Source: an uncultured bacterium (lineage in GTDB: Bacteria; Patescibacteriota; Gracilibacteria; UBA1369; PNNO01). Taken from it: a stretch of 32,000 nt of DNA. A program made the position numbers and the translations under genes. Below are positions 1 to 23,188 of the stretch, one piece after another. Below the pieces are notes generated by a model. That model was not told the origin of the DNA and searched no databases. It saw nothing but the letters and a program-made list of their open reading frames with translations. The stretch is from NCBI GenBank assembly GCA_963704705.1, contig OY969931.1, positions 600,001 to 632,000 on the forward strand, read 5' to 3'. How positions within the stretch are numbered: the first letter of the stretch is position 1; the number at the start of each line of letters is the position of its first letter.

Positions 1-861
1 ACCAAAACCAGATGGGAGGACGAGAACGACCCCAAGGTCGTCTACAGCGGTCATCGGATCTTTATGCTCGCGCAGCGAAAGCGCGACATCAACAATGGCC
101 GCGGGTTCCCGATGACGATCACGACGAGTCAGAAGACCTTCCACCTGCGGATCTTCGTCATCCCGAGCGTTTCCATGGCCGGTCAGGCCGATCGCAATGC
201 TCGGGTCATCAACGAATGGAACAAGAGCCAGGCTTTGCTGGCCAAGCGTGTGGTCGCAAACGAGAAGCGAAGCATCAATGCCCGAAGGGCTGATGTGGAG
301 CTCTCGCTTTACGGCTTCTTCGCCGGCGAGACTCCGGGACATCCGGGTGGTGGTATGGGCATCTCGTCCAACATCATCCTTGGCAAGTTCGCGAAGGACG
401 TGGTGCAGCTCGGCTTGAGCCCGCACATCTCTTTCATGCGCTACCAGCTCCAGATCGAGGGGCTTCCCCCTGACGGAGCGCTGAACCGCGACATGAACTC
501 GACTGAATGGGACTTTGGTCTCAGTTTTCTCCTTCGTATCCAGCCCTTCAAGTACTTGTACTTCGATGGGAAACTGGGCTTCTCCCTGCGTGTCGTTGAC
601 AACAGCGACGCCATGACCTGGCAGGAGGACTACCCCACCTACCAGATCTACGGGATCAACGGCAGCACCGCCAAGATGGCGGTGCTCAACTGGAGCATCG
701 GTATCTACTTCCCGGTAGCACGGAACTTCGCTTTCGGAGTGTCCTACATGGGCACCGTATCCCTGACGAAGCAGGCCTGTGTGCTCAGTGCAACCACTGA
801 CCACAACATGTGCAATTCCTTCAACCACAGCGGCGCGGTCGAAATCCGCGCACGCTTCTAG
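1..861 (+). CDS. Outer-membrane beta-barrel-like protein, 3' part (5' end lies outside the window)
   Basis: Frame 1 is open from nt 1, so the Met at 64 is internal. Beta-strand-like alternating segments are present (KLGFSLRVV, MAVLNWSIGIYFPV, FAFGVSYMGTVSL). The protein ends ...GAVEIRARF-stop (TAG 859-861), an aromatic C-terminus typical of OMP beta-signals. Codon usage is GC-rich. No family was recognised. Confidence 0.45.
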   Translation, partial: TKTRWEDENDPKVVYSGHRIFMLAQRKRDINNGRGFPMTITTSQKTFHLRIFVIPSVSMAGQADRNARVINEWNKSQALLAKRVVANEKRSINARRADVELSLYGFFAGETPGHPGGGMGISSNIILGKFAKDVVQLGLSPHISFMRYQLQIEGLPPDGALNRDMNSTEWDFGLSFLLRIQPFKYLYFDGKLGFSLRVVDNSDAMTWQEDYPTYQIYGINGSTAKMAVLNWSIGIYFPVARNFAFGVSYMGTVSLTKQACVLSATTDHNMCNSFNHSGAVEIRARF

Positions 862-886
862 AACACGAACGAGAGGAGAAGAGACC

Positions 887-3800
887 ATGAAACGTAACTG
901 TATCATGGCCCTGGCCACGGCATTGATCGTGGCCACGGGCTGCAACCCAAGCGGTCTGGAGCATCAGTGCTTCGAGGGGAGCTGCGGACAGGACAGCGGC
1001 GTCGTGGTTCAACCCGACGCCAACGTCAACAACAACAACGACGGCTCGACGGTGCACCCCGACACCGGAGTGATCGTGCCCCACTGCGGGGACAATCACT
1101 GCGATCCGGGGGAGACCGCCAACGACTGCCCTCAGGACTGCGAATCAGTCTGTGGGAACGGCGTGATCGAACCCAACGAGCAGTGCGACGACGGCAACTC
1201 CGATCCCGGCGATGGCTGCAGCCCGTCCTGCGAGGACGAGTATTGTGGCGACGGGATCATCCAGGTGGAACTGGATGAGGAGTGCGACGACGGCAACACG
1301 GCCTCCGGCGACGGCTGCGACACCAACTGTATCCTCGAGTACTGCGGCGACGGCGTGATTCAGATCACGCTGGGCGAGCAGTGCGACGACGGCAACGTCG
1401 TCTCCAACGACGGGTGCAGCGCTACCTGCCAGGTGGAGCAGCCGCTTTGCGGCAATCACACCCTGAATCCCGGCGAGGAATGCGACGACGGCAACACGGC
1501 CTCCGGCGACGGATGCAGCGCAAGCTGTATCCGTGAGTTCTGCGGCGACGGTGTGCTACAAGTCAGCCTCGGCGAGGAGTGCGATGATGGCAACATCATC
1601 AACGGAGACACCTGCAACGCCAGCTGCCAGGTCGAATTCTGCGGCGATAACATCGCTCAGGTCGGCCTCGGTGAGGAATGCGACGACGGCAACAACGTCG
1701 ACGGAGACGGGTGCGATTCCAACTGCTTGCTCGAGACGCCGACCCTTTGCGGGGACGGCAATCTCGACCTCGGTGAGCAGTGTGACGACGGCAACACGAC
1801 CCCCGGCGACGGCTGCACTGCCTTCTGTCAGCTCGAGTTCTGCGGTGACGGTGTCACCCAGATCGGCCTGGGAGAGCAGTGCGACGACGCCAACATCGTG
1901 TCCGGCGACGGCTGCAGCGCCACCTGCCAGGTGGAGAGCTGCGGCGACGGCATCATCCAGGTCGGCCTGGGAGAGCAGTGCGACGATGGGAATCTGATTC
2001 CCGGCGACGGCTGTTCTCCGTCCTGCCGCATCGAGAGCTGCGGCGACGGCATCATTCAGGTTGGCATGGGTGAGCAGTGTGACGATGGCAACGCCGTCAA
2101 CGGAGACGGCTGCAACACCAGCTGCCAGCTGGAGTACTGCGGCGACGGCGTCCAACAGCTGCTCCTCGGAGAGCAGTGCGATGACGGCAACAACCTCTCC
2201 AACGATGGGTGCAGCGCCACCTGCCAGATCGAGGTCCCGCCGCTTTGCGGCGACGGGACCCTCGACATCGGAGAACAGTGCGACGACGGCAACAACGTAT
2301 CCGGCGACGGGTGCAACGCTGCCTGTGTTCGCGAGTTCTGCGGTGACGGAGTCGTGCAGGTTTCCCTCGGGGAACAGTGCGACGACGGCAACAATTCAAA
2401 CGGTGACGGTTGTACCGCGTACTGCCGAACCGAGTTCTGCGGTGATCACATCACCCAGATCGGCCTCGGGGAACAGTGCGACGACGGCAACAACGTCGAC
2501 GGCGACGGGTGCGATTCCAGCTGTATGCTGGAAGATCCCGCTCTCTGTGGCAACGGCACCGTGGATCCGGGTGAGGGGTGCGATGACGGTAATACCGTAT
2601 CGGGCGATGGCTGCAGCGCAGGCTGTGTCATCGAACGGTGCAGCGATGGCGTGCTGCAGCCCACCCTGGGCGAGCAGTGCGACGACGGCAACCTCACCAA
2701 CGGTGACGGGTGCAGCAGCACCTGTCAGATCGAACGCTGCGGCGACGGCATCATTCAGGTCTTCCTCGGGGAGCAGTGTGATGACGGTAACCTTGTGAAC
2801 GGTGATGGCTGCAGCGCCTTCTGCGCTCTGGAGAACCCTCCTCTGTGCGGAAATCACGTTTTGGAAGCCGGAGAGCAGTGCGACGACGGCAACAACGTGA
2901 ACGGCGACGGCTGTACCGCCACCTGCCAGAAAGAGTACTGCGGCGACGGGAGCGTACAGACGCTTCTGGGCGAGCAGTGCGACGACGGCAATCTCAACAA
3001 CGGAGACGGCTGCAGCGCCGCCTGCCGCATGGAATACTGCGGCGACAACAAGATCCAGCTGCTCCTCGGTGAGCAGTGTGACGACGGTAACAACGTCGAT
3101 GGAGATGGGTGTGACTCCAACTGTATGTTGGAGGAGCCCTACCTCTGCGGCAACGGGACCGTGGATCCGGGTGAGGAGTGCGACGACGGCAACACCGTAT
3201 CGGGCGATGGCTGCAGCGCAGGCTGCGTGCTCGAGCGGTGCAGCGACGGCGTGCTCCAGCCCACCCTTGGTGAGGAGTGCGACGACGGCAACCTGTCCGA
3301 CGGAGACGGGTGCTCCTCCACCTGCCACAGGGAATACTGTGGCGACGGCGTCTATCAGCTCCTCCTTGGGGAGCAGTGCGACGACGGCAACAACATTTCA
3401 GGTGACGGTTGCAGCGCCAGCTGCCTGTTGGAAGACCCGCCGGTCTGCGGCGACGGGGTTTTGAACCCCGGCGAGACGTGTGACGACGGCAACACCATCA
3501 GCGGCGACGGCTGCTCCTCCACCTGCCAGCTCGAGTTCTGCGGTGACGGCATCGTGAATTCGGGCCTTACCGAGCAGTGCGACGATGGCAATCACACTTC
3601 CGGCGACGGCTGTAGCGCTGCTTGCCGCATTGAGATGTGCGGCGACAACATCACGCAGGCCTCCCTCGGGGAGACATGCGACGATGGCAACGTAGCGGAC
3701 GGCGACGGCTGCAGCGCGATCTGCCAGCTCGAGAACCCCGCGGCGTGCGGTAACGGCCAGATGGATCCGGGCGAGAAGTGCGACGATGGCAACACCATCA

Positions 3801-5149
3801 GCGGCGACGGCTGCTCCGCTTCCTGCCAGAACGAGTTCTGTGGTGACGGCGTCACCCAGACCCAACTGGGCGAGCAGTGCGACGATGGGAACGCCTCGAG
3901 CGGTGACGGCTGCTCCGCAGCATGTCAGAACGAGCGCTGCGGTGACGGCGTCGTACAGCCCAATATGGGCGAGGAGTGCGACGACGGCAACGTGGTCGAC
4001 GGTGATGGCTGCAGTGCATTCTGCAGTCTCGAGAATCCCGCGGTGTGCGGCGATGGGGTCATCAACCCCGGCGAGCAGTGCGACGACGGGAACAACGTGA
4101 GCGGCGACGGCTGCAACGGCAGTTGCCAGGTGGAGTACTGCGGCGACGGATCCGTGCAAGCGGGACTGGGCGAGCAGTGCGACGATGGCAACGTGGCCAA
4201 CGGCGACGGTTGCAGCGCCTCCTGCCGCATCGAGAGATGCGGCGATCACATCATCCAGCCTTCCCTCGGGGAGGAGTGTGATGACGGGAACGTGGCCAAC
4301 GGCGACGGGTGTGATTCCAGCTGCCAGCTGGAAGCGCCCGCTTTCTGTGGCAACGGGACCCTGGATTCGGGAGAGGGTTGTGACGATGGAAATACCGTAT
4401 CCGGTGACGGGTGCAGCTCCGGCTGTGTCCCTGAGGGCTGCGGTGACCATGTGCTTCAGCCGTCCCTCGGCGAGGAGTGCGACGACGGCAACCTTTCCAA
4501 TGGCGATGGCTGCAACGCAGCCTGCCAGCGCGAGTACTGCGGCGACGGCGTGATCCAGCATCTGCTGGGCGAGGAGTGCGATGACGGTAACAACATCAAC
4601 GGTGATGGCTGTGACAACAGCTGCCATCTCAGCACTCCTGCTGTGTGCGGCAACGGGGTTTTGAACCCCGGTGAGCAGTGCGACGACGGAAACAACGTGG
4701 CCGGCGACGGCTGCAACGCCTTCTGTCAGCGCGAAATCTGCGGTGACGGCATCGTACAACCCGCTCTCGGTGAGCAGTGCGATGACGGCAACGTGGGCAA
4801 CGGTGACGGCTGTAGTGCTTCGTGCAAGATCGAGTACTGCGGCGACACGGCGCACCCCCTGCTCGGTGAACAGTGCGACGACGGCAACGTGATCAACGGC
4901 GACGGCTGCGATTCCAACTGCATGTTGGAGGCACCGGCCGCCTGCGGTAACGGCACCGTGGATCCGGGTGAGGAGTGCGATGACAACAACACCGTATCCG
5001 GCGACGGGTGCAGCTCGGGCTGTACCCTGGAGGGATGCGGAGACCATATCACTCAGGCCTCCTTGGCGAGGAGTGCGACGACGGCAACGCGGTCAGTGGC
5101 GACGGGTGCAGCAGCACCTGCCAACGCGAGTACTGCGGCGACGGCGTGA
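887..5149 (+). CDS. Giant cysteine-rich-repeat lipoprotein, fragment 1 of 4 (repeat units 1-39)
   Basis: AGGAG at 874-878 lies 8 nt upstream of ATG 887. N-terminus is [18 protein letters not shown]|C (signal peptide plus lipobox Cys), followed by an Asn-run linker ([10 protein letters not shown]). Then come 39 tandem units [14 protein letters not shown]...GDGC...C..E. The authentic frame is lost at ~5063-5066, so the last ~28 codons up to TGA 5147-5149 are out of frame. The ORF-track start at 779 overlaps the upstream gene and is not favoured. Confidence 0.8.
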
Positions 5150-7030
5150 CGCAACTCACCCTTGGTGAACAGTGCGACGACGGTAACAGCGTGAACGGCG
5201 ATGGCTGCAACGCCTTCTGCAAGATCGAAATCCCGCCCATGTGCGGCGACGGCATCCTGCAGACTGGTGAGCAGTGCGACGACGGTAACAACGTTTCCGG
5301 AGACGGCTGCAACGCGGGTTGCGTGAAGGAGTTCTGCGGCGACGGCGTGCAGCAACCCGGCTTGGGTGAGCAGTGTGATGACGGTAACGCGACCAGCGGC
5401 GACGGGTGTTCCGCCGCCTGCAGGCGCGAAATCGTGGCGATAACGTCGTTCAGCTCGGCCTCGGCGAGCAGTGCGACGACGGCAACAACGTTTCGGGTGA
5501 CGGCTGCGACGCCACCTGCCAGTTCGAGGTCCAGCCCACGTGCGGAAACGGCGTGACTGACCCCAACGAGCAGTGCGACGACAGCAACAACCTGAACGGT
5601 GATGGCTGCAGCGCCGGTTGTCTCTTGGAGTACTGTGGCGACGGCGTTCTCCAGCCCCTCATGGGCGAAGAGTGCGACGACAGCAACACCTCCTCGGGCG
5701 ACGGATGCTCAGCGACCTGCCGTATCGAACGCTGCGGAGACGGCGTCGTGCAGGCTTCCCTCGGGGAGCAGTGCGACGACGGCAACGTGGTGAATGGTGA
5801 TGGTTGCAGCGCAGGCTGCAACCTCGAGAATCCGGCAGTTTGCGGCGATGGCGCCGTGGATGCCGGGGAGCAGTGCGACGATGGGAACAACATTCCCGGA
5901 GACGGCTGCAATGCAACCTGCCAGAAGGAGTACTGCGGCGATGGTTCCGTGCAAGCGGGCCTGGGCGAGCAGTGCGACGATGGCAACAACTTTAGCGGTG
6001 ATGGCTGCTCCGCAGCCTGCCGAATCGAATACTGCGGAGACGGTATCAGTCAGGTGCCCATGGGAGAGGAGTGCGACGATGGCAACATCGTCTCCGGAGA
6101 CGGCTGCTCCTCTTCCTGCCACTTGGAGATTCCGGCACTCTGCGGCGACGGCAACGTGGACCCCGGTGAGCAGTGCGACGACGGGGACAGCGTTTCCGGC
6201 GACGGCTGTAGCGCCGGTTGCCTCCTGGAGTATTGCGGTGACGGCGTCATGCAGGCTTCCCTTGGGGAGCAGTGCGACGACGGCAACGCATCCAGCAACG
6301 ACGGGTGCAGCGCTACCTGCCAGATCGAACGGTGTGGTGACGGCACTGTCCAGGTTTTCCTGGGCGAACAGTGCGATGACGGGAATCTCGTCAACGGCGA
6401 CGGGTGCAATGCCAGCTGCCAGTTGGAGGCTCCGTCGATGTGCGGCAACCACACCATCGACCCCGGTGAGCAGTGCGACGACGGAAACAACGTTTCCGGT
6501 GACGGCTGCAACGCCACCTGTCAGCGCGAATTCTGTGGGGACGGGCTCACGCAGCCCGGACTCATGGAGGAGTGCGATGACGGCAATGTCTCCAATGGAG
6601 ACGGCTGTTCCGCCAGTTGCCGCCTCGAGTATTGCGGGGATGGCGTCATTCAGGTGCTGCTCGGTGAGCAGTGCGACGACGCCAACTTCGTGAACAACGA
6701 CGGCTGCAACAACAACTGTCGGCTCAGCGCTCCGCACATCTGCGGAAACGGGGTCATCAACCCCGGCGAGCAGTGCGACGATGGCAACATCATTTCCGGA
6801 GACCTCTGTAGCTCTTCCTGTATGGTGGAGTACTGCGGCGACCATATCACCCAGGTTGGTCTGGGTGAGGAGTGTGACGATGGCAACATCGTCAACGGTG
6901 ACGGCTGCAGCAGCAACTGCCTGCGGGAGTACTGCGGTGACGGTGTCATTCAAGTGCTGCTCGGTGAGCAGTGCGATGATGGCAACATCGTCTCCGGGGA
7001 CGGATGTTCATCCATCTGTCGTGTAGAAAA
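1151..7030 (+). repeat. Coding tandem array: 59 units of ~99-102 nt (33-34 aa, 6 Cys each), with higher-order 300-nt and 600-nt periodicity
   Basis: Hand count of the C-D-D-[GASN]-[ND] cores gives 59. Pro-containing linkers (E.P..C) follow units 3, 6, 11, 14, 17 ... 59, giving an exact 3-unit period from unit 12 onward. Segments 2521-2700 and 3121-3300 show 24 mismatches in 180 nt at an exact 600-nt offset. Confidence 0.9.
5008..5556 (+). CDS. Giant cysteine-rich-repeat protein, fragment 2 of 4 (units 40-43)
   Basis: The repeat consensus ([27 protein letters not shown]...) resumes in this frame at ~5065 and is lost again at 5433/5434. Sequence before 5065 and after 5434 in this ORF is out-of-frame read-through. 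There is no independent start context. Confidence 0.6.
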
Positions 7031-7037
7031 CCCTTAG
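5406..7037 (+). CDS. Giant cysteine-rich-repeat protein, fragment 3 of 4 (units 44-59)
   Basis: The repeat consensus resumes at ~5436 ([17 protein letters not shown]...) and runs in frame to ...CRVENP, with TAG at 7035-7037. The first ~10 codons of the ORF are out-of-frame overlap with fragment 2. Confidence 0.75.
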
Positions 7038-7990
7038 AAGGCCCCACTGGACCAAGCTGCTCCGACGGCGTCGACAACGACGGCGACGGACTGGTGGACT
7101 GCAACGACCCAGGCTGCGCAGGCGATCCCGCCTGCGCAGTCCCGGGGGTTGAGGTCTGCTCCGGTGGGGTAGACGAGGATGGCGACGGTCTTGTGGACTG
7201 TGCCGACCCCGACTGCTCGAATTCCCCCTTATGTCCCGAGAACTGCACCAACGGTATCGACGATGATGCCGATGGTCTCGTGGATTGCAACGATACAGAG
7301 TGCGCGGCTCATCCCGCGTGCGTTGGTCCCACCACAGAAATCTGCAACGACGGGCTCGACAACGACGGTGACGGTCTTGCAGATTGCCTCGATCCGGACT
7401 GCGTGGCTCATCCCGCGTGTGCTCCGGGCGTTGAGATCTGCAATAACCTCACCGACGACGATGGTGATGGCAGGGTCGATTGCCAGGATCCAAATTGCTG
7501 GGCTACCGCCTTCTGCATCGGTGTTACGGAGAACTGCTCCGATGGCATCGACAACGACGGCGACGGCAAAACCGACTGCGAGGATGATAAGTGCAGCGGC
7601 CGTCTCGGCGGCAACGGCACCATCTGTGCATATGGTCGGCGGCAGGAACTCCTGTGCAACGACGGCATCGATAACGATGGCGACGGCCTGATCGATTGCC
7701 TCGATCCCGACTGCTCTCTTGATCCCGTTTGTGGTTTTACCACAACGGAGAACTGCGAGGGTGGTGGTGACGAGGACGGCGACGGCCAAGCCGATTGTGT
7801 CGATAGCGATTGCCGGAACCATCCACGGTGTATGGTCTGGAACACTGCAAGAACCGGAACTACAGGAACTTTGTGTCCCACAGACACTTCCGGAACCTGC
7901 GCTACTGGTATTCTAAGTGCTCCAGATTACGACAACGTAAAGTGGTGTCGACCCATCAACCCGGTCTGCTATACGGACTACGTGAAGTAG
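7004..7990 (+). CDS. DNDGDG-repeat / Cys-rich C-terminal domain protein; probably the C-terminal domain (fragment 4) of the giant gene
   Basis: Contains 8 units of C.DG.DNDGDG..DC.DPDC....C, then a C-terminal module ...[13 protein letters not shown]...[14 protein letters not shown]-stop (TAG 7988-7990). There is no signal peptide and no SD of its own. The ORF overlaps the stop of fragment 3, and adding one nt at 7031-7033 fuses it in frame ([23 protein letters not shown]). Confidence 0.7.
7058..7813 (+). repeat. Coding tandem array: 8 Cys-bracketed DxDxDG (DNDGDG) units, GC-rich codons
   Basis: The eight units are [140 protein letters not shown] and [20 protein letters not shown]. Confidence 0.85.
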
Positions 7991-8026
7991 CCGGTCCATC
8001 CGCAACTAATTGTTCAACCTTATAAA

Positions 8027-8056
8027 GGCGGGCTCACATATGTGAACCCGCCTTTT
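8027..8056 (+). terminator. Rho-independent terminator after the giant gene, at the GC-rich/AT-rich boundary
   Basis: GGCGGGCTCACA-TA-TGTGAACCCGCC forms a 12-bp stem with one mismatch, followed by TTTT. It lies 37 nt after the stop at 7990. Confidence 0.7.
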
Positions 8057-8131
8057 CCCCATATAAAAAATTTGCTTTTATGTAATTAATTTGGTATCAA
8101 TGCGTTCTATATATTGGAAATGATTTTGTGC

Positions 8132-8159
8132 TTGACAAGTTTGTCGAATAATGTAAAAT
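8132..8159 (+). promoter_or_regulatory. Sigma70-type promoter for the 8189 gene
   Basis: TTGACA (8132-8137), a 16-nt spacer ending in TG, then TAAAAT (8154-8159), i.e. an extended -10. It lies ~30 nt upstream of ATG 8189. Confidence 0.55.
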
Positions 8160-8188
8160 AACATCTAAAATTCTTAATACCTTATAAT

Positions 8189-9586
8189 ATGTCAAAATTA
8201 GATAGAAATACGGAAAATTTAGAAAAGCGCTTTCAAAAGCCTAAATTTTATTTAAATCCCAATTCAATTTGGGGTAAAATTGCACGTCCGATTACATTAG
8301 CTGTTGGTTTAGTTCTTGCTGGAGGAGTAGCTGCTTGTAAATTTGACGTAGGTGGATTCGCTCCACCTGATCGTCCGGATTCAAGACCATTAGACGACGG
8401 AAGTTTTGATGCAGGAACAGATGCTGGTGATGCTGGTCCAACTGATGAAATTTGTAATGATGGAATCGATAATGATCAGGATGGGAAAATAGACTGCGCT
8501 GATGAAGATTGTTTAGGGAATCCTTCTTGTCCTGAAATTTGTGATGATGAAGTTGATAATGACGGAGACGGGAAAATTGATTGTGCTGATAGTGATTGTG
8601 TTGGTCATCAGGGAAGTGGAGGTTTATGCGAACAAGCTGAAACCAATTGTGCAGATGGATTTGATAATGATGCAAATGGATTAATAGATTGTGCAGATAC
8701 TGCTCACTGCGGCGGAAGTCCTGATTGTGGTGAAACTGTATGTAATGATGGCATCGATAATGATAATGACGGTAAAACTGACTGCGCTGATAGTGAATGC
8801 GTTGGCCAAACCGGTCAAAATGGAGAAATTTGCGAAGCAACTGAAGTAACTTGTGATGATGGTTTTGATAATGATGGTGACGGCCAATCAGACTGTGATG
8901 ATCCTGATTGTTTAAATACAGCAGCTTGCGGAGAATCTACATGCAATGACGGTATAGATAATGATAATGACGGTAAAACTGACTGCGCAGATAGTGAATG
9001 TGTGGGGCAACTTGGACCAAATGGAGAAACATGTGAATTAACTGAAGTTTCTTGTGCTGATGGTCAAGATAATGATGGTGATGGACTTATAGATTGTGAA
9101 GACCCAGATTGTTTTAGCGCTTCATGTTCTGAAGTATGTGATGACGGACAGGATCATGATAATGATGGTTTAGTTGGATGTGCAGACCCTGATTGTACGG
9201 GCTTCACCGATGGTTTAACAATGTGTGCATACGGGCAAGAATGGGAAACCGATTGTACAGATGGTGTAGATAACGATGGCAATGGATACACAGACTGTGA
9301 TGATATTGCATGTTCAATAACTGCCGCATGTGGTGCGGTTGTTGAAGATTGTACAAGTTTTACTGCTGATGTTAATGGAGATGGTTTACAAAAATGTGAA
9401 GATGTAACATGTTTATTCGATCTGGATTGTATAGATTGGCCTCGTTCATGTTCAGGTTCTGCTGGATCTATATGTCCTACACAGCAATCCGGTACTTGTG
9501 CAACTGGAACATGTTCTGAAGGAGCCACTTATAATGGTCAGACTCTGCCAAAAGTTTGTAGCCCTATAGATCAATCTTGTTACTAA
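8189..9586 (+). CDS. Membrane-anchored/lipoprotein DNDGDG-repeat protein; low-GC counterpart of the 7004-7990 domain
   Basis: A 33-aa polar N-terminus precedes [15 protein letters not shown]|C (TM segment or lipobox). Ten units of C.DG.DND.DG..DC.D..C follow. The C-terminal module [13 protein letters not shown]...CSPIDQSCY-stop matches the end of the GC-rich ORF. Codons are AT-rich (tgt, gat, aat, ggt). Confidence 0.85.
8453..9412 (+). repeat. Coding tandem array: 10 Cys-bracketed DxDxDG units, AT-rich codons
   Basis: Examples include [60 protein letters not shown] (twice), [20 protein letters not shown] and [20 protein letters not shown]. Confidence 0.8.
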
Positions 9587-9805
9587 AAAGAATACGAATA
9601 ATTTAATATATCCTAGTTTTTGGTCTGATTTAATATAATCGGACATATCATTAATTGATATTGTTATCGATTGTTATCGGATCAAATGTCCATTGAAAAC
9701 CTGCTTAAAGCTTATGATGAGCCTTGTTTTGCTAAAAAAAATTTTTGGCAGGACAGGGTTCATCAACTTTTAGAAAAACACACCGAAAACACGGAGGAAA
9801 GTCTC

Positions 9806-10471
9806 ATGCAGAAGATCGCGATGATGATGTGTGTCGTTGCCCTGACGTTCGTTGCCTGCAACGAGCACCCCGGGGAGTACAGCGATGCGAACAACAACAA
9901 CGAGCCCGCTGTGAATAACAACAACAGCGGCACCAACGACAACAACTGCTGCGATGTGCAGCCCACCTTCACGGCCTGGTCGACAGACATGCTCGCGACC
10001 TGGGTCCAGAAGCAGGACGGATCCGTGGAATTGGGGGCTGTGCTCACGCCTGAGTCGTGCGATGGGGAACGAGCAAGGTACGATTACTACGTGACTTCGC
10101 GTCCCATGGTCTTCCTGTTCTCGGCTTCGACTGATTTGACGATTCAGTCGACAATCCCCCTGGAGGCCTACATCGTCAACCAGAACCCCGATGACCCCTG
10201 GTCGTTCTGGGTCATGGAGTTCGAGATCAAGGAGTTTTATGGGCTGGATCCGTTCTGGCACATCAAGCGTTTTCCCACATCCATGAGCCAAGCCGAGGGC
10301 TTCAAGTACTCGGCGAGCGCGTTCATCTGCGGTAAGCAGATCGATGCCATCAACTTGGGATGCTGGAACGTGTTCGAGGATGCGTTCTTCGAGCCGGCCG
10401 GCAATCAGCGCAACTATTACTTCGAGGAGGACGAGTTCGGAGAAATCTTCGTACTCATCGTAGTTCGGTAG
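9806..10471 (+). CDS. Small GC-rich lipoprotein of unknown function (221 aa)
   Basis: GGAGGA at 9793-9798 lies 7 nt upstream of ATG 9806. N-terminus is MQKIAMMMCVVALTFVA|C (signal plus lipobox), followed by Asn-run linkers (DANNNNEPAVNNNNSG) like that of the giant protein. G+C is ~52-58%. The frame is also open upstream to 9659 (ATG 9686, TTG 9671) in AT-rich DNA, giving an alternative long start. No family was recognised. Confidence 0.7.
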   Translation: MQKIAMMMCVVALTFVACNEHPGEYSDANNNNEPAVNNNNSGTNDNNCCDVQPTFTAWSTDMLATWVQKQDGSVELGAVLTPESCDGERARYDYYVTSRPMVFLFSASTDLTIQSTIPLEAYIVNQNPDDPWSFWVMEFEIKEFYGLDPFWHIKRFPTSMSQAEGFKYSASAFICGKQIDAINLGCWNVFEDAFFEPAGNQRNYYFEEDEFGEIFVLIVVR

Positions 10472-10545
10472 GGATTGGGGTCTCTCTGAAGCATCTTCCC
10501 TCCCTCCCAGTCCATACATGCTTCTTTGAGACCCTTTGTTTTCCA

Positions 10546-10608
10546 GGGTTTGAGAGTCGGCTGGCAGCGTAAAAAACTGCCGGCCGCTCTCAAGCCCGAC
10601 TTGTTTTT
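10546..10608 (+). terminator. Long GC-rich hairpin plus T-run closing the second GC-rich block
   Basis: GGGTTTGAGAGTCGGCTGGCAG-(CGTAAAAAA)-CTGCCGGCCGCTCTCAAGCCC forms an imperfect stem of ~20 bp, followed by GACTTGTTTTTCT. It also lies just downstream of the convergent pfkB-like gene. Confidence 0.6.
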
Positions 10609-10643
10609 CTAAAAATACAAAGCTTTAAGTAGGTTTTTCTTTT

Positions 10644-11591
10644 TTATAGAGGTTCACCAAAGTTTTTTTCGAATCTTTTTGCGAATTCTTTCATTTTGAA
10701 ATTATGGCTTTGCGTACCGCTGTTTTCAATTACAAAAGCGCTAACTAAAGCACCAACCTTACATGATTTAACATGGTCATAACCTTTAATTATTCCTGAA
10801 AGCAGGCCGGCCCTGAATGCGTCTCCGCAACCTGTGGGGTCAGCTATTTGTGTTGGTTTAGCGATAGGAATGTGATGTTCTTCGCTGCCTTCTCTTAAAA
10901 TTGAACCCTTTTCGCCCTTTGTTTCAATAAAAAAGTGAACATTATTAACAATATCATCAATATTGTAATTTAATCTTTTACATAAAAGTTCGGTTTCGTA
11001 GTGATTGGCAATATAACCAAATGCATTTTTAAGCAAAAACCTTAGATCATCCAGATCAAAAGCAGGTGTCATCTGTCCTGGATCAAAAATATAAGGAATT
11101 TCCGCTTCTTTAAGTCTATGTGCAAGTTTTACAGTTCTCTTACAAATATCCGGTGATAAAATAGCTATTTCAATATCCAATAAATCAACTTCTGTAAGTT
11201 CTACTTCATCTTCAATACTTTCCATAGCACCCGGAGCAAAAAAAGTGATTTGGTTTTCTTTATCATCAGTCAAAAGATAAGCAGTAGCAGTAAACTGATC
11301 TCTTGCTTTGCCTATATGTTTTATTGAAATTTTGTTCTTTTTAAGCCATTTTTCGTAATCTATAAAATCCATTCCAGATACTCCGTATAAAAGTGGATTA
11401 ACATCCAGCATTTTTAGGCTGTAAGCGATATTTCCGCCACAACCACCAAAATGCACAACTTTATCACGTGCAGTAAATGCTATATTTAAATGATCAAGAT
11501 GTTCTTTAAGCAAAGCATCACTAAAAACACCTTTGTAGCGCATAATATAATCGTATGCAATAGAGCCACTAACAAAGATTTTACTTCTCAT
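10644..11591 (-). CDS. PfkB-family carbohydrate/nucleoside kinase
   Basis: 315 aa. It has an N-terminal GG motif (FGGCGGNIAYSL) and the PfkB signature DPTGCGDAFRAG near the C-terminus. The substrate cannot be assigned. Confidence 0.85.
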   Translation of the reverse strand: MRSKIFVSGSIAYDYIMRYKGVFSDALLKEHLDHLNIAFTARDKVVHFGGCGGNIAYSLKMLDVNPLLYGVSGMDFIDYEKWLKKNKISIKHIGKARDQFTATAYLLTDDKENQITFFAPGAMESIEDEVELTEVDLLDIEIAILSPDICKRTVKLAHRLKEAEIPYIFDPGQMTPAFDLDDLRFLLKNAFGYIANHYETELLCKRLNYNIDDIVNNVHFFIETKGEKGSILREGSEEHHIPIAKPTQIADPTGCGDAFRAGLLSGIIKGYDHVKSCKVGALVSAFVIENSGTQSHNFKMKEFAKRFEKNFGEPL

Positions 11592-11598
11592 ATTAGAA

Positions 11599-12393
11599 TT
11601 ATTTAGTTGGAATTGGGGTATCTGAATATTTAGGCATTTTTTCTTTTAAATCCTGCTGTTTGCGGCCTTCATAATTTTGTTCAATATGAATATCGCGCGC
11701 AATAACACCTGCTCTGAATAAACTTTCAAAAGTTCCGGCATCAGTCCATCTCTTTTTTAAAACAGTTGCTGTTAACTGTGCTTTTTGAATGTAGGCGTTA
11801 TTTACATCAGTAATTTCATATTCACCTCTGTTTGAAGGTGACAGTCCCGAAATTATATCAAAAACCTGATTGTCATATAAATATAAACCTGTTACAGCAT
11901 AGTTTGATTTTGGTTGTTTAGGTTTTTCTTCAATTCCAACTACTTTTTTGCCTTTTAATTCAGCAACTCCAAATCTAAATGAATCTTCAAGTTCTTTAAT
12001 AAAAATATGGGCACCTTTTTGATTTTCGAATTCTTTAATATGTTTACTTAAGTTTTCTTCAAAGACATTGTCACCTAAAATAACTGCGAAATTGTCTTCT
12101 CCTACAAAGTTTTTAACAAGACCTACTGCATGCGCAATGCCTTCAGCTTTTTCTTGTACTCTAAATTGCAAATTGCATCCATATTGTTTGCCGTCTCCGA
12201 GTAATTGTAAAAATGAACCTGCGTGTTTAGGGCCTGACACAATTAAAATATCTCTTATCCCTGCCTGGGTTAGTGTTTGCAGAGGATGAAAAATCATTGG
12301 TTTGTTGTAGATAGGAAGTAAATGTTTGTTTGTTACTTCGGTAAGTGGTTTTAAACGATTTCCCTGTCCTCCTGCGAGAATTACACCTTTCAT
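11599..12393 (-). CDS. rmlA: Glucose-1-phosphate thymidylyltransferase-like sugar nucleotidyltransferase
   Basis: 264 aa. The N-terminus MKGVILAGGQGNRLKPLT..NKHLLPIYNKPMI is the G-x-G-x-R-L nucleotidyltransferase motif of the RmlA family. It lies in a cluster with rmlB and rmlD. Confidence 0.8.
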   Translation of the reverse strand: MKGVILAGGQGNRLKPLTEVTNKHLLPIYNKPMIFHPLQTLTQAGIRDILIVSGPKHAGSFLQLLGDGKQYGCNLQFRVQEKAEGIAHAVGLVKNFVGEDNFAVILGDNVFEENLSKHIKEFENQKGAHIFIKELEDSFRFGVAELKGKKVVGIEEKPKQPKSNYAVTGLYLYDNQVFDIISGLSPSNRGEYEITDVNNAYIQKAQLTATVLKKRWTDAGTFESLFRAGVIARDIHIEQNYEGRKQQDLKEKMPKYSDTPIPTK

Positions 12394-12395
12394 TT

Positions 12396-13229
12396 TTATA
12401 TTTTATTAAGATAATCTTTTAGAGCTTCTTCATGTGATCTTAAGTGGGGCAGTTTTGTATTGTGCAGAATTGAAATCTGCGGTCTTTTTGCCGGCCGGTT
12501 GAGCTCTCCTGAATTAATGCTCACTAAGTCTACCCCAGTTAAATTTTTTAAATCAAATATTTTTTTTGCAAATTCATACCACGAAGTGCTATTTTCGTTT
12601 ACCAGATGGTAAATTCCGCTTGAATAGCCCGTTTTCACAAAATCCAAAATTCCATTTGCAAGATCAACAGTATATGTTGGTTTACCAAATTGGTCGTTCA
12701 CAACCTGAATTTGACGACCTTCATCAGCGAGTTTTAGCATTGTTTTTACAAAGTTCTGTCCATGCATTCCAAATAGCCATGAAGTTCTGATAATAAAAAA
12801 ATTATCTGTATTTTCCTGAATCATTTTTTCTCCCAGAAGCTTTGATTCACCGTATGTATTAATAGGGGAGGTAACATCATCTTCTTTGTATCCTTCCTTT
12901 TTGGTACCGTCAAAAACATAATCTGTACTAAAATACATTAAATTGGCATCAATTTCTTTGCATTTTTCAGCTAAAAATTTGTTTGCGTAGCCATTTACCT
13001 GCATAACGAAATTCTGCTTTGCTTCACATTCATCAACATAAGTAAATCCGGCAGCGTTTATAACCAAATTTGGCCTAAAATCATTTAAAATCTGCCATAC
13101 AGATTCTTCATTTGTTATATCTAGTTCATCTCGGCTCGTTGAATAGAAATCAAATTCTTTGGATTCTTTAAATACAGAATTAATTTCAGTGCCCAGTAGC
13201 CCGTTTTTACCTATTAAAAGGATTTTCAT
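12396..13229 (-). CDS. rmlD: dTDP-4-dehydrorhamnose reductase
   Basis: Has the MKILLIGKNGLLG Rossmann start plus STDYVFDG and YGESKLLGE (the Y-x3-K catalytic pair). The ORF track extends to 13253, but that start overlaps proS by 14 nt, so ATG 13229 is favoured. Confidence 0.85.
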   Translation of the reverse strand: MKILLIGKNGLLGTEINSVFKESKEFDFYSTSRDELDITNEESVWQILNDFRPNLVINAAGFTYVDECEAKQNFVMQVNGYANKFLAEKCKEIDANLMYFSTDYVFDGTKKEGYKEDDVTSPINTYGESKLLGEKMIQENTDNFFIIRTSWLFGMHGQNFVKTMLKLADEGRQIQVVNDQFGKPTYTVDLANGILDFVKTGYSSGIYHLVNENSTSWYEFAKKIFDLKNLTGVDLVSINSGELNRPAKRPQISILHNTKLPHLRSHEEALKDYLNKI

Positions 13230-13239
13230 CAGACACGAG

Positions 13240-14946
13240 TTAATTGTTGGCAAATTTTTTAATTTCGTTAATTAATTTATCTATTTTAACATTTTTAGCT
13301 TCTTTTTCAGTTCGCTCTTTCCATTCAACACTGTTTTCAGCAATTGTTCTTTTGCTGATTACAATTCTAAGTGGCAATCCAATCAAATCAGCATCATTTA
13401 ATTTAAGTCCAGGACTGGCATCACGATCATCAAAAAGAACTTCAATATTCTCATTATTCATATTTTCATAAAGTTTCTGCGCAATAGTCTGCACCTCGTC
13501 ATCTTCGCCAATTGTAATCAAATACACCAAGTAAGGAGCAATGGTTTTTGGCCAGATTATTCCTTTATCATCATGTGATGCTTCTACGATTGTTCCTAAA
13601 AGCCTTGTTGAACCGATTCCATAACAACCCATAATAACGGGCTTTTTCTTGCCATCCTGATCAGTGAAGCTAAGATCAAAATCATCACTGTATCGTGTGC
13701 CGAGTTTAAAAATATTACCTGCTTCAACAGCTTTTTCTTCTTCAAGCTGAGTATCACATTTAGGACACATAAATCCGCCTTTAACCTCAACGAAATCAGC
13801 AAAATCTTTAACTTCAAAATCACGGCCTATATTTATATTTTTCCAGTCTTTATTTAATTCATTTGCGCCAGATTCGAAATTTTTCATTTCTTTAATAGAA
13901 AAATCACCAATAAATGAGATTTTGTTATTTGGCTTGCCATCAGCCAAAACAGGGGATATAAATCCTTCGACAAGCCCTAATTGTTTAAGCTCTTCAGATG
14001 TAGCTATTCTGACATGTTTTTTAAAATATCTTTCTAATTTTTCAAGATTCACATTAAAGTCTCCACGTATTAAAATAGCGACAGGACCTTCATCTTCAAC
14101 CATATAAACTACTGATTTTAAAATTCGAAATTCATCGATTTCAAGTTTTTTAGCTGCATCTTTGATTGTTTTATCCCGTTCAATATCTATCAATTCGCGT
14201 TTTTTCTCTTTTTCATCTGATGTAGGATTATCGTATTTGCCTTCTGCAATTTCCAGATTTTGTGCAAATTTACATTTAGGACAGTAAATCATTGTATCTT
14301 CACCTGCATCGGTTTTTATTGAGAATTCATGTGAAATTTTATCTGTAAAAGCTCCACCCGAAGCTTCAATAATATAAGCATCCAATCCACATCTCGAATA
14401 AACATTTAAGTATGCTTCAATAACTTTATTGTAATATTCATCTAAGTCTTCTTCTGAAGTGTGAAAACTGTACATGTCTTTCATCCCAAATTCGCGTCCT
14501 CTTAATAATCCTGATTTTGCGCGTGGTTCGTTGCGAAATTTGGTTTGTAACTGATAAACGCATAAAGGCAGATCTTTATAACTTTGAATTTGTTTTTTTG
14601 CCAAAGGTGTTACTGTTTCTTCATGACTTGGCCCTAAAACAAAGTCTTTTTCACCTGATTTTAATCTATATAAAACATCAAATGTATTTATTCTGCCTGT
14701 TGTTTCCCATAATTCAACTGGTTGAAGTGCAGGCATTAATATTTCCTGCGCGCCAACAGCATTCATTTCTTCACGAATAATTGTGTTGATTTTATGCATC
14801 GATCGCATTCCAAGCGGAAGATAGTTGTAAATTCCAGCTGCAACTTTATCTATAAATCCTGCTTTAGTTAAAAGCTCAGCATTTATACTGTTAGAATCAT
14901 GTGGAGTTTCATGTTTAGTACGCCCGAAAAATTTAGAATATCGCAT
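13240..14946 (-). CDS. proS: Prolyl-tRNA synthetase (bacterial type, with insertion domain)
   Basis: 568 aa. The N-terminus MRYSKFFGRT.KE.P.D....S..LL.KAGFI......GIY..LPLG is characteristic of ProRS. Class II motifs and a C-terminal anticodon-binding region are present. Confidence 0.95.
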   Translation of the reverse strand: MRYSKFFGRTKHETPHDSNSINAELLTKAGFIDKVAAGIYNYLPLGMRSMHKINTIIREEMNAVGAQEILMPALQPVELWETTGRINTFDVLYRLKSGEKDFVLGPSHEETVTPLAKKQIQSYKDLPLCVYQLQTKFRNEPRAKSGLLRGREFGMKDMYSFHTSEEDLDEYYNKVIEAYLNVYSRCGLDAYIIEASGGAFTDKISHEFSIKTDAGEDTMIYCPKCKFAQNLEIAEGKYDNPTSDEKEKKRELIDIERDKTIKDAAKKLEIDEFRILKSVVYMVEDEGPVAILIRGDFNVNLEKLERYFKKHVRIATSEELKQLGLVEGFISPVLADGKPNNKISFIGDFSIKEMKNFESGANELNKDWKNINIGRDFEVKDFADFVEVKGGFMCPKCDTQLEEEKAVEAGNIFKLGTRYSDDFDLSFTDQDGKKKPVIMGCYGIGSTRLLGTIVEASHDDKGIIWPKTIAPYLVYLITIGEDDEVQTIAQKLYENMNNENIEVLFDDRDASPGLKLNDADLIGLPLRIVISKRTIAENSVEWKERTEKEAKNVKIDKLINEIKKFANN

Positions 14947-14959
14947 CTTTTAGGTTAAA

Positions 14960-15997
14960 TTAAGGTCTTGAAGTGGGTAAAGGTTTATCACTTGTTTTTT
15001 CATGTTTGCGTTCCTGTGCTTTATCAATAAGTTTCTCCCACCACTCTTTATGTGTTTCATACCAATCAAAGGTTTTCGCTATTCCTTCTTCAAAGGTAAC
15101 CTCGGGTTCCCAGCCGATTTCTTTTTTCATTTTACTTGCATCAATCGCATAACGTCTGTCATGAGCCTTACGGTCATCAACAAACATAATCTTATTTTCG
15201 TCTTTTTCTAAAAATTTAAGTATTAATTTTGTGATTTCCAGGTTAGATTTTTCAAAATTACCACCGATATTATATACTTCACCAGGTTTACCTTTTTCCA
15301 AAATCATATCAATGGCACGACAATGATCGGTTACATAAAGCCAATCCCGAACATTTTTACCGTCTCCATAAACAGGTAGTTTTTGATCTTCGGATGCCAG
15401 TCTGAAAAAATAAGGAATTAGTTTTTCAGGAAATTGATATGGTCCGTAATTATTTGAACATCTGCTAATTGTTAATGGCATTTTAAATGTTTCATAATAT
15501 GATCTCACCAGAAGGTCAGCTGCTGCTTTGCTTGCAGCATAAGGACAATTAGGTGAAATTGGTGTTTTTTCAGTAAATTTATTGTCATTATCAAGCCCTA
15601 AATCACCATAAACTTCATCAGTTGAAACCTGATGGTATCTTGAGACTTCATTTGCACGGCATGCATCAAGCAAAGTTTGAGTTCCAACAATATTTGTCAT
15701 TGTAAAAGCACTTGGCGTTTCAATACTTCTATCTACATGTGTTTCAGCTGCAAAATTTACAACAGTGTCGAATTTTTCTCTTTCAAAAAGTTTATTTACC
15801 ATTGGAACATCAGCAATATCACCAAGCATAAACCAAAACCTTTCATTATTATCCAGGTCTTTTAAATTATCCATGTTCCCTGCGTAAGTAAGGCGATCCA
15901 AAACAATCACCATATCTTTAGGGTGTTTTTTAAGATAATAATGCGTGAAATTTGAACCTATAAATCCGGCACCGCCGGTAACTAATACTTTTTTCAT
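14960..15997 (-). CDS. rmlB: dTDP-glucose 4,6-dehydratase
   Basis: 345 aa. Has MKKVLVTGGAGFIGSNF, the YAASKAAADLL Y-x3-K motif, and the conserved HVDRSI and NNYGPYQFPEKLIP blocks. Confidence 0.95.
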   Translation of the reverse strand: MKKVLVTGGAGFIGSNFTHYYLKKHPKDMVIVLDRLTYAGNMDNLKDLDNNERFWFMLGDIADVPMVNKLFEREKFDTVVNFAAETHVDRSIETPSAFTMTNIVGTQTLLDACRANEVSRYHQVSTDEVYGDLGLDNDNKFTEKTPISPNCPYAASKAAADLLVRSYYETFKMPLTISRCSNNYGPYQFPEKLIPYFFRLASEDQKLPVYGDGKNVRDWLYVTDHCRAIDMILEKGKPGEVYNIGGNFEKSNLEITKLILKFLEKDENKIMFVDDRKAHDRRYAIDASKMKKEIGWEPEVTFEEGIAKTFDWYETHKEWWEKLIDKAQERKHEKTSDKPLPTSRP

Positions 15998-16063
15998 AAG
16001 ATACGAACGTTAGTGAGTATCTGGCGAGCAAAAACTTATTGCGAGCCATAGCGTGAGCCCCGC

Positions 16064-16462
16064 TTAGCGGGGTGAACTCAGTTTCAAGAATTTATCGAAA
16101 TCTCTTACATAATCAGATGGGTCGTAATTAGTTGACGACACTGCCAGTAGAATAGCATCTTCTGAAAAATCTGTGAACTCATGCCATATCATATTATCTA
16201 CATAAATTGCATTATCAGGACCTTTTAGCTTATGTTCCTGCCAATCTTTGCCATCATGCACTCTCGCGGTAATTTCACCGCGCGGACAAATAAAAAGTTC
16301 TTTTTCAGTTCTGTGCGCATGACCTCCTCTTGTTTCTTTGTTATTAAATGCATAATAAACACGCTTTGGTTCCCAATCTATATAATCCTTAAGTTCAATA
16401 GGAACCAGTTGACCGCGTTCATCAGTAAATAGAGGAAGATTGTAAGTTTGAATTTTGTTCAT
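16064..16462 (-). CDS. FdtA/WxcM-like cupin (putative dTDP-4-keto-6-deoxyhexose 3,4-ketoisomerase)
   Basis: 132 aa. The pattern F.DERG.L...E......KR.YY......RGGHAH....ELFIC..G matches, from memory, the FdtA/WxcM-like domain rather than the ~180-aa RmlC epimerase. Confidence 0.65.
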   Translation of the reverse strand: MNKIQTYNLPLFTDERGQLVPIELKDYIDWEPKRVYYAFNNKETRGGHAHRTEKELFICPRGEITARVHDGKDWQEHKLKGPDNAIYVDNMIWHEFTDFSEDAILLAVSSTNYDPSDYVRDFDKFLKLSSPR

Positions 16463-16465
16463 GAT

Positions 16466-18556: not shown

Positions 18557-18624
18557 ACGAAAAAAGCTTTAGTTAGCTTAAATGCGAGTGTTAGTTTACG
18601 TGCAAAAGCTTTAAAAGTAAAGGT

Positions 18625-19713
18625 TTAATTCAGTAATTTCTCTTGTTGTGCAGGCGAAGACAAAGATTCAACCTGACTTAGCTTATCAGCAAATCTTGTG
18701 AGTTTTTTCTCTGAATTTTCAAAGCTTCCTCTTGCATGAGTTATATGTTTTCCAACAAGAGTAAAATCATCACCGAATTTTTCAAAATCACCCCTTAACC
18801 TTGATAGAGAAGTGAGAATTTCGCCTGCCTTTTTTTCAATTTGGAAACCTTTAAGACCGATTAAAATTGTTTGAAGGTAAACATAAAAGGTGTTTGGAGA
18901 AACAGGTATAACTTTTTTAGAGAAAGCATAATTAGTTAAATCAGTATTATCATCACTGTTTTTGATTATAATCTCATAATAAACGTTTTCAGCAGGTACA
19001 TACATTAAAGCAAAATCAAATGTTCCTTCATCAGGTAAAATATATTTTGAACTAATCTCATCAATTCGTTTTTTTACATCGCTGATGAATGTTTTTCTGA
19101 TTGCTGCTCGTTGTTTCTCATCGGTTTCTTCATACATTTTCCTGAAATTTTCCAATGGAAATTTTGAGTCAACCGGAATTAAATGATTATCACGTACATG
19201 AATTACAGCATCAACTGTATCACCGGTTTTAAAAGAATATTGCATTGAATAGTTTTCTCTCGGGAAAATTTGAGCAAGCAAATCACTTAAAAACAATTCT
19301 CCAAGACCGCCACGAAGTTTTGGCGCTTTTAATAATTCCTGCAATGAAGATATATCTTTACCAACTTCAAATATTTTTTTATTGCCTTCTTCAATTTTTG
19401 ATAACCTCGCTGTTACTGTATTTACTGCTTTTGCAGCTGTATCAAGCCTTTCTCCGACTGTTTGATGCTGTCTTTGTAAAACTGTAGTGTTTTCTTTTAA
19501 TCTTTCATTCACCTGCTTTGTAACTTCCGTTAATTGCTGAAGAACATTTTGAGTAACATTATTCAAATTGGTTGTCATGTTCTGATTCAAATCATCAAGT
19601 CTTTTATGGTAACCTGAATCATTGCCGCCATTTAATTTATTTTGAAAATAAAAAAATAAGCCGATTAATGCGCCGACCAAAAGCAAGATTATAACTATTA
19701 GCACTGTTTCCAT
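18625..19713 (-). CDS. rmuC: DNA recombination protein RmuC
   Basis: 362 aa. Has an N-terminal TM helix (VLIVIILLLVGALIGLFFYF), a long coiled-coil, and the conserved RmuC core (RGGLGE..L...L, VD..I......IPVDSKFP, ALMYVPAE). Confidence 0.85.
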   Translation of the reverse strand: METVLIVIILLLVGALIGLFFYFQNKLNGGNDSGYHKRLDDLNQNMTTNLNNVTQNVLQQLTEVTKQVNERLKENTTVLQRQHQTVGERLDTAAKAVNTVTARLSKIEEGNKKIFEVGKDISSLQELLKAPKLRGGLGELFLSDLLAQIFPRENYSMQYSFKTGDTVDAVIHVRDNHLIPVDSKFPLENFRKMYEETDEKQRAAIRKTFISDVKKRIDEISSKYILPDEGTFDFALMYVPAENVYYEIIIKNSDDNTDLTNYAFSKKVIPVSPNTFYVYLQTILIGLKGFQIEKKAGEILTSLSRLRGDFEKFGDDFTLVGKHITHARGSFENSEKKLTRFADKLSQVESLSSPAQQEKLLN

Positions 19714-19767
19714 AATATTTAACTTAATTAGAAATCTATAATAATGGAAAAATCATTAAAAAAGTAC

Positions 19768-19796
19768 TTGATTTATTTTTTGGAATGTGGCATAAT
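19768..19796 (+). promoter_or_regulatory. Sigma70-type promoter with extended -10, firing into a gene-free intergenic region
   Basis: TTGATT (19768-19773), a 17-nt spacer ending in TGG, then CATAAT (19791-19796). No plus-strand CDS follows for 3.4 kb. Confidence 0.5.
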
Positions 19797-19802
19797 ATAG
19801 GT

Positions 19803-23167: not shown

Positions 23168-23188
23168 ATAGAGAAATAATTGTTATTT

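Follow-up and report, generated by a model that had tools for sequence, protein, structure and literature searches.

Tandem arrays of the Myxococcus cysteine-rich repeat (TIGR02232, DUF4215) occur in secreted proteins of 1,300–3,958 amino acids, and DUF4215 proteins of this size are common in metagenome bins of Myxococcota. Large, very Cys-rich extracellular proteins that bear signal peptides and weakly resemble the Myxococcus repeat and pappalysin have also been described in "Candidatus Peribacter riflensis" (PMC4736985). In Peribacteria, such Cys-rich proteins vary between strains and have been proposed to act in attachment, and the genomes encode at least four copies of Lgt and one disulfide-forming enzyme (PMC4736985). 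In the Cys-rich (C-rich) domain of teneurin-4, acidic residues coordinate three Ca2+ ions (PMC9058538). Finally, frameshifting at a stop codon by the prolyl peptidyl-transfer RNA (peptidyl-tRNA-Pro) is established in the +1 direction, at CCC_UGA, for Listeria phage tsh and E. coli pheL (PMC5009743). Here we analyze a 32,000-nt stretch of contig OY969931.1 (the window; all positions are window coordinates) and, in particular, the giant gene at positions 887–7990, which encodes a repeat lipoprotein of this class and in which a tail homologous to the teneurin C-rich domain follows the repeat array across a conserved change of reading frame.

By itself, the giant repeat lipoprotein is ordinary: its families are known, and proteins of this class had been noticed in the lineage before. 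An earlier note on this DNA, made from the letters alone, had recognized the protein correctly but regarded the size of the array and its fusion to a DNDGDG domain as the unusual points; both occur elsewhere, the fusion of DUF4215 units and acidic repeats in proteins P0052 and P0058 (P-numbers denote homologous proteins). What is new is the conserved recoding-type junction and a persistent gene-specific base composition. Compared with the Myxococcus proteins, which contain the same repeat, the gene resides in an AT-rich, small-genome bacterium of the candidate phyla radiation (CPR), its array follows strict three- and six-unit super-periods, and the tail is joined through a change of frame. 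The "Ca. Peribacter riflensis" proteins come from the same lineage and are the same kind of large, Cys-rich, signal-bearing protein; similarity to the repeat is weak there and strong here, and for those genomes, which have 58.5% GC, no composition contrast has been reported and no frameshift junction described.

The giant gene is divided among four open reading frames (ORFs) on the + strand (779–5149, 5008–5556, 5406–7037 and 7004–7990; frames 2, 1, 0 and 2, respectively), and the translations of all four show the same repeat pattern. Adding one base after each of positions 5066, 5433 and 7033 produces a single ORF of 7,107 nt and 2,368 amino acids, in agreement with the ~2,370-codon gene that the earlier note had expected from repair of three breaks. 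The repaired protein is rich in Gly (16.9%), Asp (13.5%), Cys (11.8%) and Asn (7.9%). The three breaks, which that note treats together, are not equivalent: the third is not damage but belongs to a junction that other species share.

To describe this junction we use eight independent sequences, namely the window, L005, L006, L009, L088, L089/L090, L091 and L092, where L-numbers denote sequences of relatives (bins, Logan contigs and a single-cell genome). In all eight the array ends in C-CCT-stop, with TAG, TAA and TGA all in use. Downstream, the −1 frame is open for 190–362 codons that include 24–44 Cys, the other two frames contain 3–32 stops, and upstream the −1 frame is closed 5–43 codons before the junction. 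In the window, the tail forms one open frame of 319 codons, and the remaining frames are broken by 6 and 12 stops. At 7029–7037, within GAAAACCCTTAG, the zero frame reads N-P-stop, which would give a short form that ends RVENP, and the −1 frame reads K-P-L-E-G-P. The array ends AAC CCT TAG in the window, L005, L009 and L091, where the tail begins CCC TTA GAA GGC CC(C/T), or P-L-E-G-P. The window, L005 and L009 share the 17-mer AACCCTTAGAAGGCCCC without a difference, even though the flanking proteins are only 50–60% identical; L091 differs from it in the final base alone. The array of L006 and L088 consists of acidic repeats and ends TGC CCT TAA or TGC CCT TGA, and the tail there starts CCC TTA/TTG ATC; in L089/L090 an array of 21-residue repeats ends TGC CCT TAG, and in L092 a MopE-like array ends CTC CCT TAG and is followed by a different Cys-rich tail. 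The upstream arrays thus vary (DUF4215, acidic repeat, 21-residue repeat or MopE-like) and the junction is constant. Both TTA, used for none of the 110 Leu codons of the array, and CCT, used for 9% of its Pro codons, are otherwise avoided yet stand at the junction. Among the sequences compared, no start codon for the tail is conserved, and the tail lacks a signal peptide. An out-of-frame downstream ORF behind a fixed junction, as required of a programmed −1 frameshift, is present in eight of eight.

The protein on either side of the junction belongs to known families. Its N-terminus consists of MKR, then a hydrophobic stretch and a lipobox whose +1 residue is Cys, the arrangement of bacterial lipoproteins processed by Lgt and LspA; the L009 ortholog has a lipoprotein signal of the same type (...VIGSGC), as do the neighbouring GC-rich genes. 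The lipoprotein signal and Asn-run linker that the earlier note had reported are both present in the translation, the latter as a short run behind the lipobox. Searches with hidden Markov models assign the array to TIGR02232 (1,302, 150 and 574 bits on three array pieces; curated cut-off 20.8) and to PF13948 (DUF4215; 689, 88 and 305 bits; cut-off 27), and these scores, far above the cut-offs, bear out the family that the earlier note had named. All 59 units conform to C-x(9-12)-C-D-D-G-N-x3-G-D-G-C-x3-C, with four Cys at fixed spacing, and each is presumably locked by two disulfides; that the protein needs an oxidising compartment, as previously proposed, follows from its sequence. In a comparison with solved structures, one unit matched pappalysin-1/2 (E 2e-7).

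The DNDGDG tail corresponds to the curated repeat NF033662, "acidic double-disulfide repeat" (266 bits; cut-off 41), in eight stretches, and a motif search likewise returns the eight units counted earlier. Their core motifs span 7058–7813 and are followed at 7826–7987 by a four-Cys end module, the Cys-rich end module of the earlier note. A tail unit aligns with residues 9–40 of the teneurin-4 C-rich domain (PDB 7PLP; E 1.8e-8) through the motif CxDGxDNDGDGxxDCxDPDC, in which the D/N residues are conserved; the bacterial unit has four Cys where teneurin has six. This homology makes the earlier label "calcium-type" reasonable, and we predict that the tail repeats bind Ca2+ in the manner of the teneurin C-rich domain. 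The acidic repeat is widespread (2,227 matches in a homologue search) and is fused to many other domains; in contrast to NF033662 proteins and teneurin in general, the giant gene combines eight tandem copies with a lineage-specific end module, and its Ca2+ binding is a prediction.

We interpret the third break as a site of programmed −1 "shifty-stop" frameshifting, which would add the putative Ca2+-binding tail to the array, a reading to which we give a probability of roughly 0.6. What all eight junctions share is a Pro codon in the P site whose pairing can shift back by one base (C-CCU to CCC) while a stop codon occupies the A site. A ribosome at C CCU UAG (7030–7037) could terminate and release an array-only protein of ~2,050 amino acids. 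Alternatively, its peptidyl-tRNA-Pro could move back one base (CCU to CCC), in which case UUA (Leu) would replace the stop and the 319-residue tail would be added, and the frameshift would then set the ratio of tailed to tail-less molecules. The shifty stops of tsh and pheL likewise combine a Pro codon in the P site, a slow stop in the A site and tRNA re-pairing; they shift to +1, whereas the proposed event would be −1 (C_CCU to CCC) and would take place in a chromosomal CPR surface-protein gene. Among −1 frameshift genes, dnaX and copA yield two products with a common N-terminus. A literature search found no report of frameshifting in this lineage. A scan of metagenomes with an 18-mer of the junction returned four chance matches and no orthologue, and Rfam had no match within the window. 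If the frameshift is real, a chromosomal gene of bacteria would contain a new recoding site, and annotation pipelines would systematically split or discard such proteins.

At the level of the whole protein, we think it probable that the gene encodes a giant, exported, lipid-anchored surface protein with a frameshifted tail, which may serve as a stalk or adhesin. In such a molecule, the lipobox Cys would be followed by a long spacer of 59 four-Cys DUF4215 units, arranged in three- and six-unit super-repeats, and the spacer would carry the distal tail of eight predicted Ca2+-binding double-disulfide repeats and the four-Cys end module. The most likely role of this assembly would be that of an extended, rigid stalk or adhesin touching other cells or surfaces. 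This proposal draws on the lipid anchor, the disulfide-rich spacer and the homology of the predicted Ca2+-binding tail to a domain of an adhesion protein, and also on the attachment role suggested for the Cys-rich proteins of Peribacteria. Partner domains in homologues include lectin, VWA, FG-GAP, PKD and discoidin domains, and a DUF4215 protein has been reported in diatom adhesive trails. CPR bacteria are thought to live attached to other cells and almost nothing is known of their attachment machinery; the locus provides a concrete, conserved candidate.

Several observations weigh against this reading. The canonical slippery heptamer X_XXY_YYZ is missing from four to five of the eight junctions: A_AAC_CCU fits in the window, L005, L009 and L091, and U_UGC_CCU and C_CUC_CCU elsewhere do not. 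Hairpins of −23 to −30 kcal/mol follow each junction, out of register with one another and with z-scores of −0.7 to −3.6, and the RNAalifold consensus of −4.1 kcal/mol gives no convincing conserved RNA structure after the junction. An AlphaFold2 model of a 200-residue, six-unit block, with 13 self-repeats supplied as the alignment, reached a predicted local distance difference test (pLDDT) score of 33, and because this model is poor the rod shape is an assumption. The adhesion role is an argument from analogy. Lastly, breaks 1 and 2 may render the gene inactive in this strain; if these deletions are real, translation ends at 5149 after 1,420 amino acids, or ~40 units.

Breaks 1 and 2, the latter outside any homopolymer, differ from the third. 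In the L009 ortholog, the array is an uninterrupted ORF of 1,497 amino acids and neither break is conserved. Beyond the breaks, all 80 unit Cys and all 36 tail Cys are kept, and the correct frames are free of stops. Since all downstream sequence is still perfectly unit-like, we take the two breaks for errors in the consensus or for mutations of very recent date. Frameshifting was considered for both and rejected: at break 1, tRNA-Leu would have to re-pair from UUG to CUU, and at break 2 the slip would replace an invariant Cys.

Among the alternatives, the array and the tail could be two separate genes, with the array ending at the TAG of 7035–7037 and the tail translated alone by coupling or re-initiation. 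There is indeed an ATG at 7004 in the window, and a TTG just before the junction in L006, L088 and L089 is taken as a start by gene callers. However, L009 has no start near the junction, the only ATG in L005 lies ~14 codons upstream, and the candidate starts vary in both position and type. A separate tail protein would also be devoid of a signal peptide, yet it holds 24–44 conserved Cys and Ca2+-binding motifs typical of exported proteins, and an AT-rich paralogue of the tail in the window has a membrane anchor of its own. Finally, two genes would leave the C-CCT-stop geometry without explanation. We consider this arrangement unlikely.

A second view, to which we assign equally low odds, is that the gene is a decaying pseudogene in which three inactivating lesions mark the loss of a foreign GC-rich gene from an AT-rich genome. 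Consistent with this, three frame breaks fall within 7 kb whereas the housekeeping genes of the adjoining 24 kb are unbroken, a Cys codon that is otherwise invariant is lost at break 2, and no product of the giant gene is found in a collection of 5.8 billion proteins. Searches of this collection, which apparently returned proteins of ~0.55–1.75 times the query length, gave no near-identical protein for the tail, the repaired protein or a 610-residue piece spanning breaks 1 and 2, the best matches being 45–62% identical. The preservation of Cys codons and stop-free frames described above argues against decay, as do the conservation of the third break in eight of eight sequences, each with an intact downstream ORF, and the uninterrupted L009 array. 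Breaks 1 and 2 would be very recent at most.

The base composition of the locus bears on a further alternative. The GC content at third codon positions (GC3) is 0.78–0.82 in the array and 0.65 in the tail, compared to 0.19–0.28 in eleven host genes, so that within the window a 60-point gap separates the giant gene (~0.80) from the host genes (~0.20), and its codon choice is the inverse of theirs for every amino acid. Such a contrast, the Myxococcota origin of the best array matches and the fact that a Logan contig (run ERR11571143; 100% identical to 8959–24946) stops at 8959 and does not span the 7990–8189 junction would all suit a block at 1–7990 that is a chimera of assembly or binning or that came very recently from a GC-rich donor, for example Myxococcota. 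We regard this as highly improbable. The chimera was rejected on synteny, the same GC-rich and AT-rich neighbours being present in relatives, with the same adjacency in independent bins, Logan contigs and a single-cell genome. The order GC-rich giant tail, AT-rich paralogue, small lipoprotein, pfkB-rmlA-rmlD-proS recurs in L005, L006 (the single-cell genome) and L092, and in L009 minus the AT-rich paralogue; gene order and composition contrast together are found at the locus in L005, L006, L065, L009 and L092. Composition also shifts at gene borders (1–861, 887–7990, 8189–9586, 9803–10471 and 10.6 kb onward) rather than at one breakpoint, and the Logan contig confirms that a second GC-rich gene, 9803–10471, is embedded in AT-rich host DNA. 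The genes are atypical in composition, as in a recent island, but occupy the same site in relatives; the window contains no tRNA gene, and general Pfam scans of the window turned up no integrase domain. As the contrast is kept in relatives whose ProS is only 56–71% identical, any acquisition must be ancient. It is just as improbable that the frame is corrected in the nucleic acid, by RNA-polymerase slippage on AAAACCC or in a phase-variable C3/C4 tract, since the short A and C runs at the junction, where one extra C would restore the frame, are only 3–4 nt long (known slippage tracts are much longer), the A run is missing in four of eight sequences, and all eight assemblies have the same "off" length, unexpected for such a tract.

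The contrast extends beyond orthologs of the giant gene. In distant relatives, other GC-rich, Cys-rich lipoproteins with MopE motifs or of Stig1-like type occupy the slot after pfkB, with GC3 of 0.6–0.91 against 0.24–0.65 in the adjoining housekeeping genes. Viewed across one syntenic locus, lipoprotein or secreted-protein genes have GC3 of 0.6–0.91 and housekeeping genes 0.2–0.65; this comparison covers window positions 1–10600 and the regions downstream of pfkB in L005, L006, L009, L010, L022, L024, L036, L037, L042, L043, L055, L057, L060, L061 and L065. The DNA between the genes and one paralogue remain AT-rich. Possible causes are codon selection, recurrent exchange or biased gene conversion. 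A more tentative idea, which we hold with less conviction than the frameshift itself, unites the two novel elements: a lineage-wide and so far undescribed −1 shifty stop of Peribacteria (C_CCU before UAG, UAA or UGA, read as CCC_UUR) may join the tail to interchangeable arrays, in genes that gene-specific codon selection or exchange at surface loci may hold at GC3 0.6–0.9 despite a genome composition of 0.2–0.65. If true, this would amount to a dedicated expression regime for host-contact proteins of episymbiotic bacteria. Adjacent paralogues with GC3 of 0.8 and 0.17, maintained across deep divergence, also offer a natural experiment on synonymous composition in reduced genomes.

The array itself is highly ordered. 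Motif counting gives 59 units, as do the TIGR02232 stretches (39+4+16), so the number in the earlier note stands; its six Cys per unit do not, each unit having four, and its estimate of at least 350 Cys compares to a count of 280 (N-terminal part 8, array 236, tail 36). Unit lengths cycle through 31, 33 and 36 residues to give a 100-residue period. This period had been noted from unit 12 onward; the triplet order in fact begins at unit 1, holds through unit 6, is interrupted by a five-unit group (7–11) and is regular from 12 to 59. Nucleotide self-identity is 0.50, 0.65 and 0.64 at lags of 99, 300 and 600, over a background of 0.33. Triplets are 68–71% identical at even lags and 66–67% at odd lags of 1, 3, 5, 9 and 11, with 0.687 at lag 7. 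Blocks of 200 residues are 71–73% identical in phase and 63–67% out of phase; the 200-residue period is real but shallow, as each of the five in-phase values is higher than any of the seven out-of-phase values. The exact 600-nt period of the earlier note survives as a weak periodicity and not as an exact one: unit 38 is one residue short, which places the fifth signature copy at 4918 instead of 4921. Between the copies at 2521 and 3121 we count 24 differences in 180 nt, as the earlier note did, and other copies differ at 40–67 of 180. Nucleotide identity among the units is only ~67%, and the window as a whole has no more than 12 recurring 31-mers; because the units are so diverged and recurring 31-mers so few, collapse or expansion of the array in assembly, about which the earlier note had been concerned, is unlikely. 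In L009, the array at 16197–20690 (− strand) comprises 45 units of 31 residues, every sixth having 34 (31×5+34), for a period of 189 residues. A six-unit super-repeat is hence common to both arrays despite their different unit types.

In the N-terminal linker of the giant protein, the CGDxxCxxGExxxxCxxDC module resembles the 21-residue unit of the L089 array. The window has a single copy of this unit, at 1079–1150 near the protein start, and L089 has a long CGDGxCxxxExxxxCxxDC array at 2–1648, which precedes the same junction as in the window.

Table 1. Features of the giant gene and its immediate surroundings.
Feature	Position	Strand	Description
Upstream GC-rich ORF	1..861	+	Open to the left edge of the window, ends ...VEIRARF; GC3 0.80
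Shine-Dalgarno-like AGGAG	874..878	+	8 nt before the ATG at 887; read from sequence
Lipoprotein signal peptide, lipobox VATG-C	887..943	+	Cys codon 941–943; from translation
N-terminal linker	944..1150	+	NNNN run and one CGDxxCxxGExxxxCxxDC module; from translation
Array of 59 DUF4215/TIGR02232 units	1151..7030	+	Four Cys each; hidden Markov model and motif count
Frame break 1	5065..5066	+	One G lost, TTG GGC (SLGEEC), GGG to GG, inside unit 40
Frame break 2	5433..5434	+	One base missing from unit 44, in its first Cys codon, which is invariant; ATC [T]GT GGC
Candidate −1 frameshift site A AAC CCT TAG	7029..7037	+	Junction conserved in 8 sequences
C-terminal part in −1 frame	7031..7990	+	Eight acidic double-disulfide repeats, end module, stop
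Terminator-like hairpin	8027..8056	+	GGCGGGCTCACATATGTGAACCCGCC then TTTT; read from sequence
Intergenic DNA after the giant gene			GC 0.24–0.36
AT-rich paralogue of the tail	8189..9586	+	N-terminal membrane anchor, acidic double-disulfide repeats, same end module
GC-rich small lipoprotein gene	9803..10471	+	Asn-run linkers; between AT-rich flanks; GC3 0.73

The host was identified from ProS, which is 85–88% identical to that of Patescibacteria single-cell genomes and "Candidatus Peribacteria" bins and 56–73% identical to that of many Peregrinibacteria/Gracilibacteria bins, placing it among the Peribacteria/Peregrinibacteria of the CPR. ORFs are intact under translation table 11, so the host uses the standard genetic code. 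The region from 10.6 to 32 kb encodes pfkB, rmlA, rmlD, proS, rmlB, fdtA, infB, rmuC, a UvrD-nuclease, S1, clpB and ruvB at ~34% GC. Two further intact ORFs of host composition, at 23180–24982 (+) and 29150–30808 (−), encode proteins of 600 and 552 amino acids without a Pfam match.

Upstream of the giant gene, the ORF at 1–861 is probably co-transcribed with it, the distance from its stop to the ATG of the giant gene being 25 nt. It has no Pfam match; the ORF that precedes the L009 ortholog is its homologue, at 24% identity (E 2e-12). Its relatives, at 20750–21697 in L009 and 18079–19146 in L043, have signal peptides. The terminal ...ARF resembles the end of an outer-membrane beta-barrel, which would be odd for CPR bacteria; these are generally regarded as having no outer membrane.

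Downstream, the consensus terminator scan did not list the hairpin that follows the giant gene, owing to its short T run. An exact search with the 38-mer at 7975–8012, which runs from the stop codon of the giant gene into its 3' flank, gave no match among the GTDB species representatives. Orthologs of the small lipoprotein gene, without a family match, occupy a conserved position in L005, L006, L009, L060 and L065. The intervening AT-rich paralogue is preceded by a promoter-like site at 8132–8159 (near-consensus TTGACA-16-TAAAAT), and its product matches the giant tail with 35% identity (BLASTP E 6e-52), at a GC3 of 0.17. Exact look-up of the tail ORF and of ORF 8189 in the protein collection found neither, and proteins similar to the paralogue exist elsewhere (P0111). 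Its orthologs in L005, L006 and L065, with GC3 of 0.14–0.22, likewise adjoin GC-rich genes. Within the paralogue, a 31-mer is repeated at 8756–8788 and 8957–8989, in 201-nt units that are 81% identical, and it is because of this repeat that the Logan contig ends at 8959.

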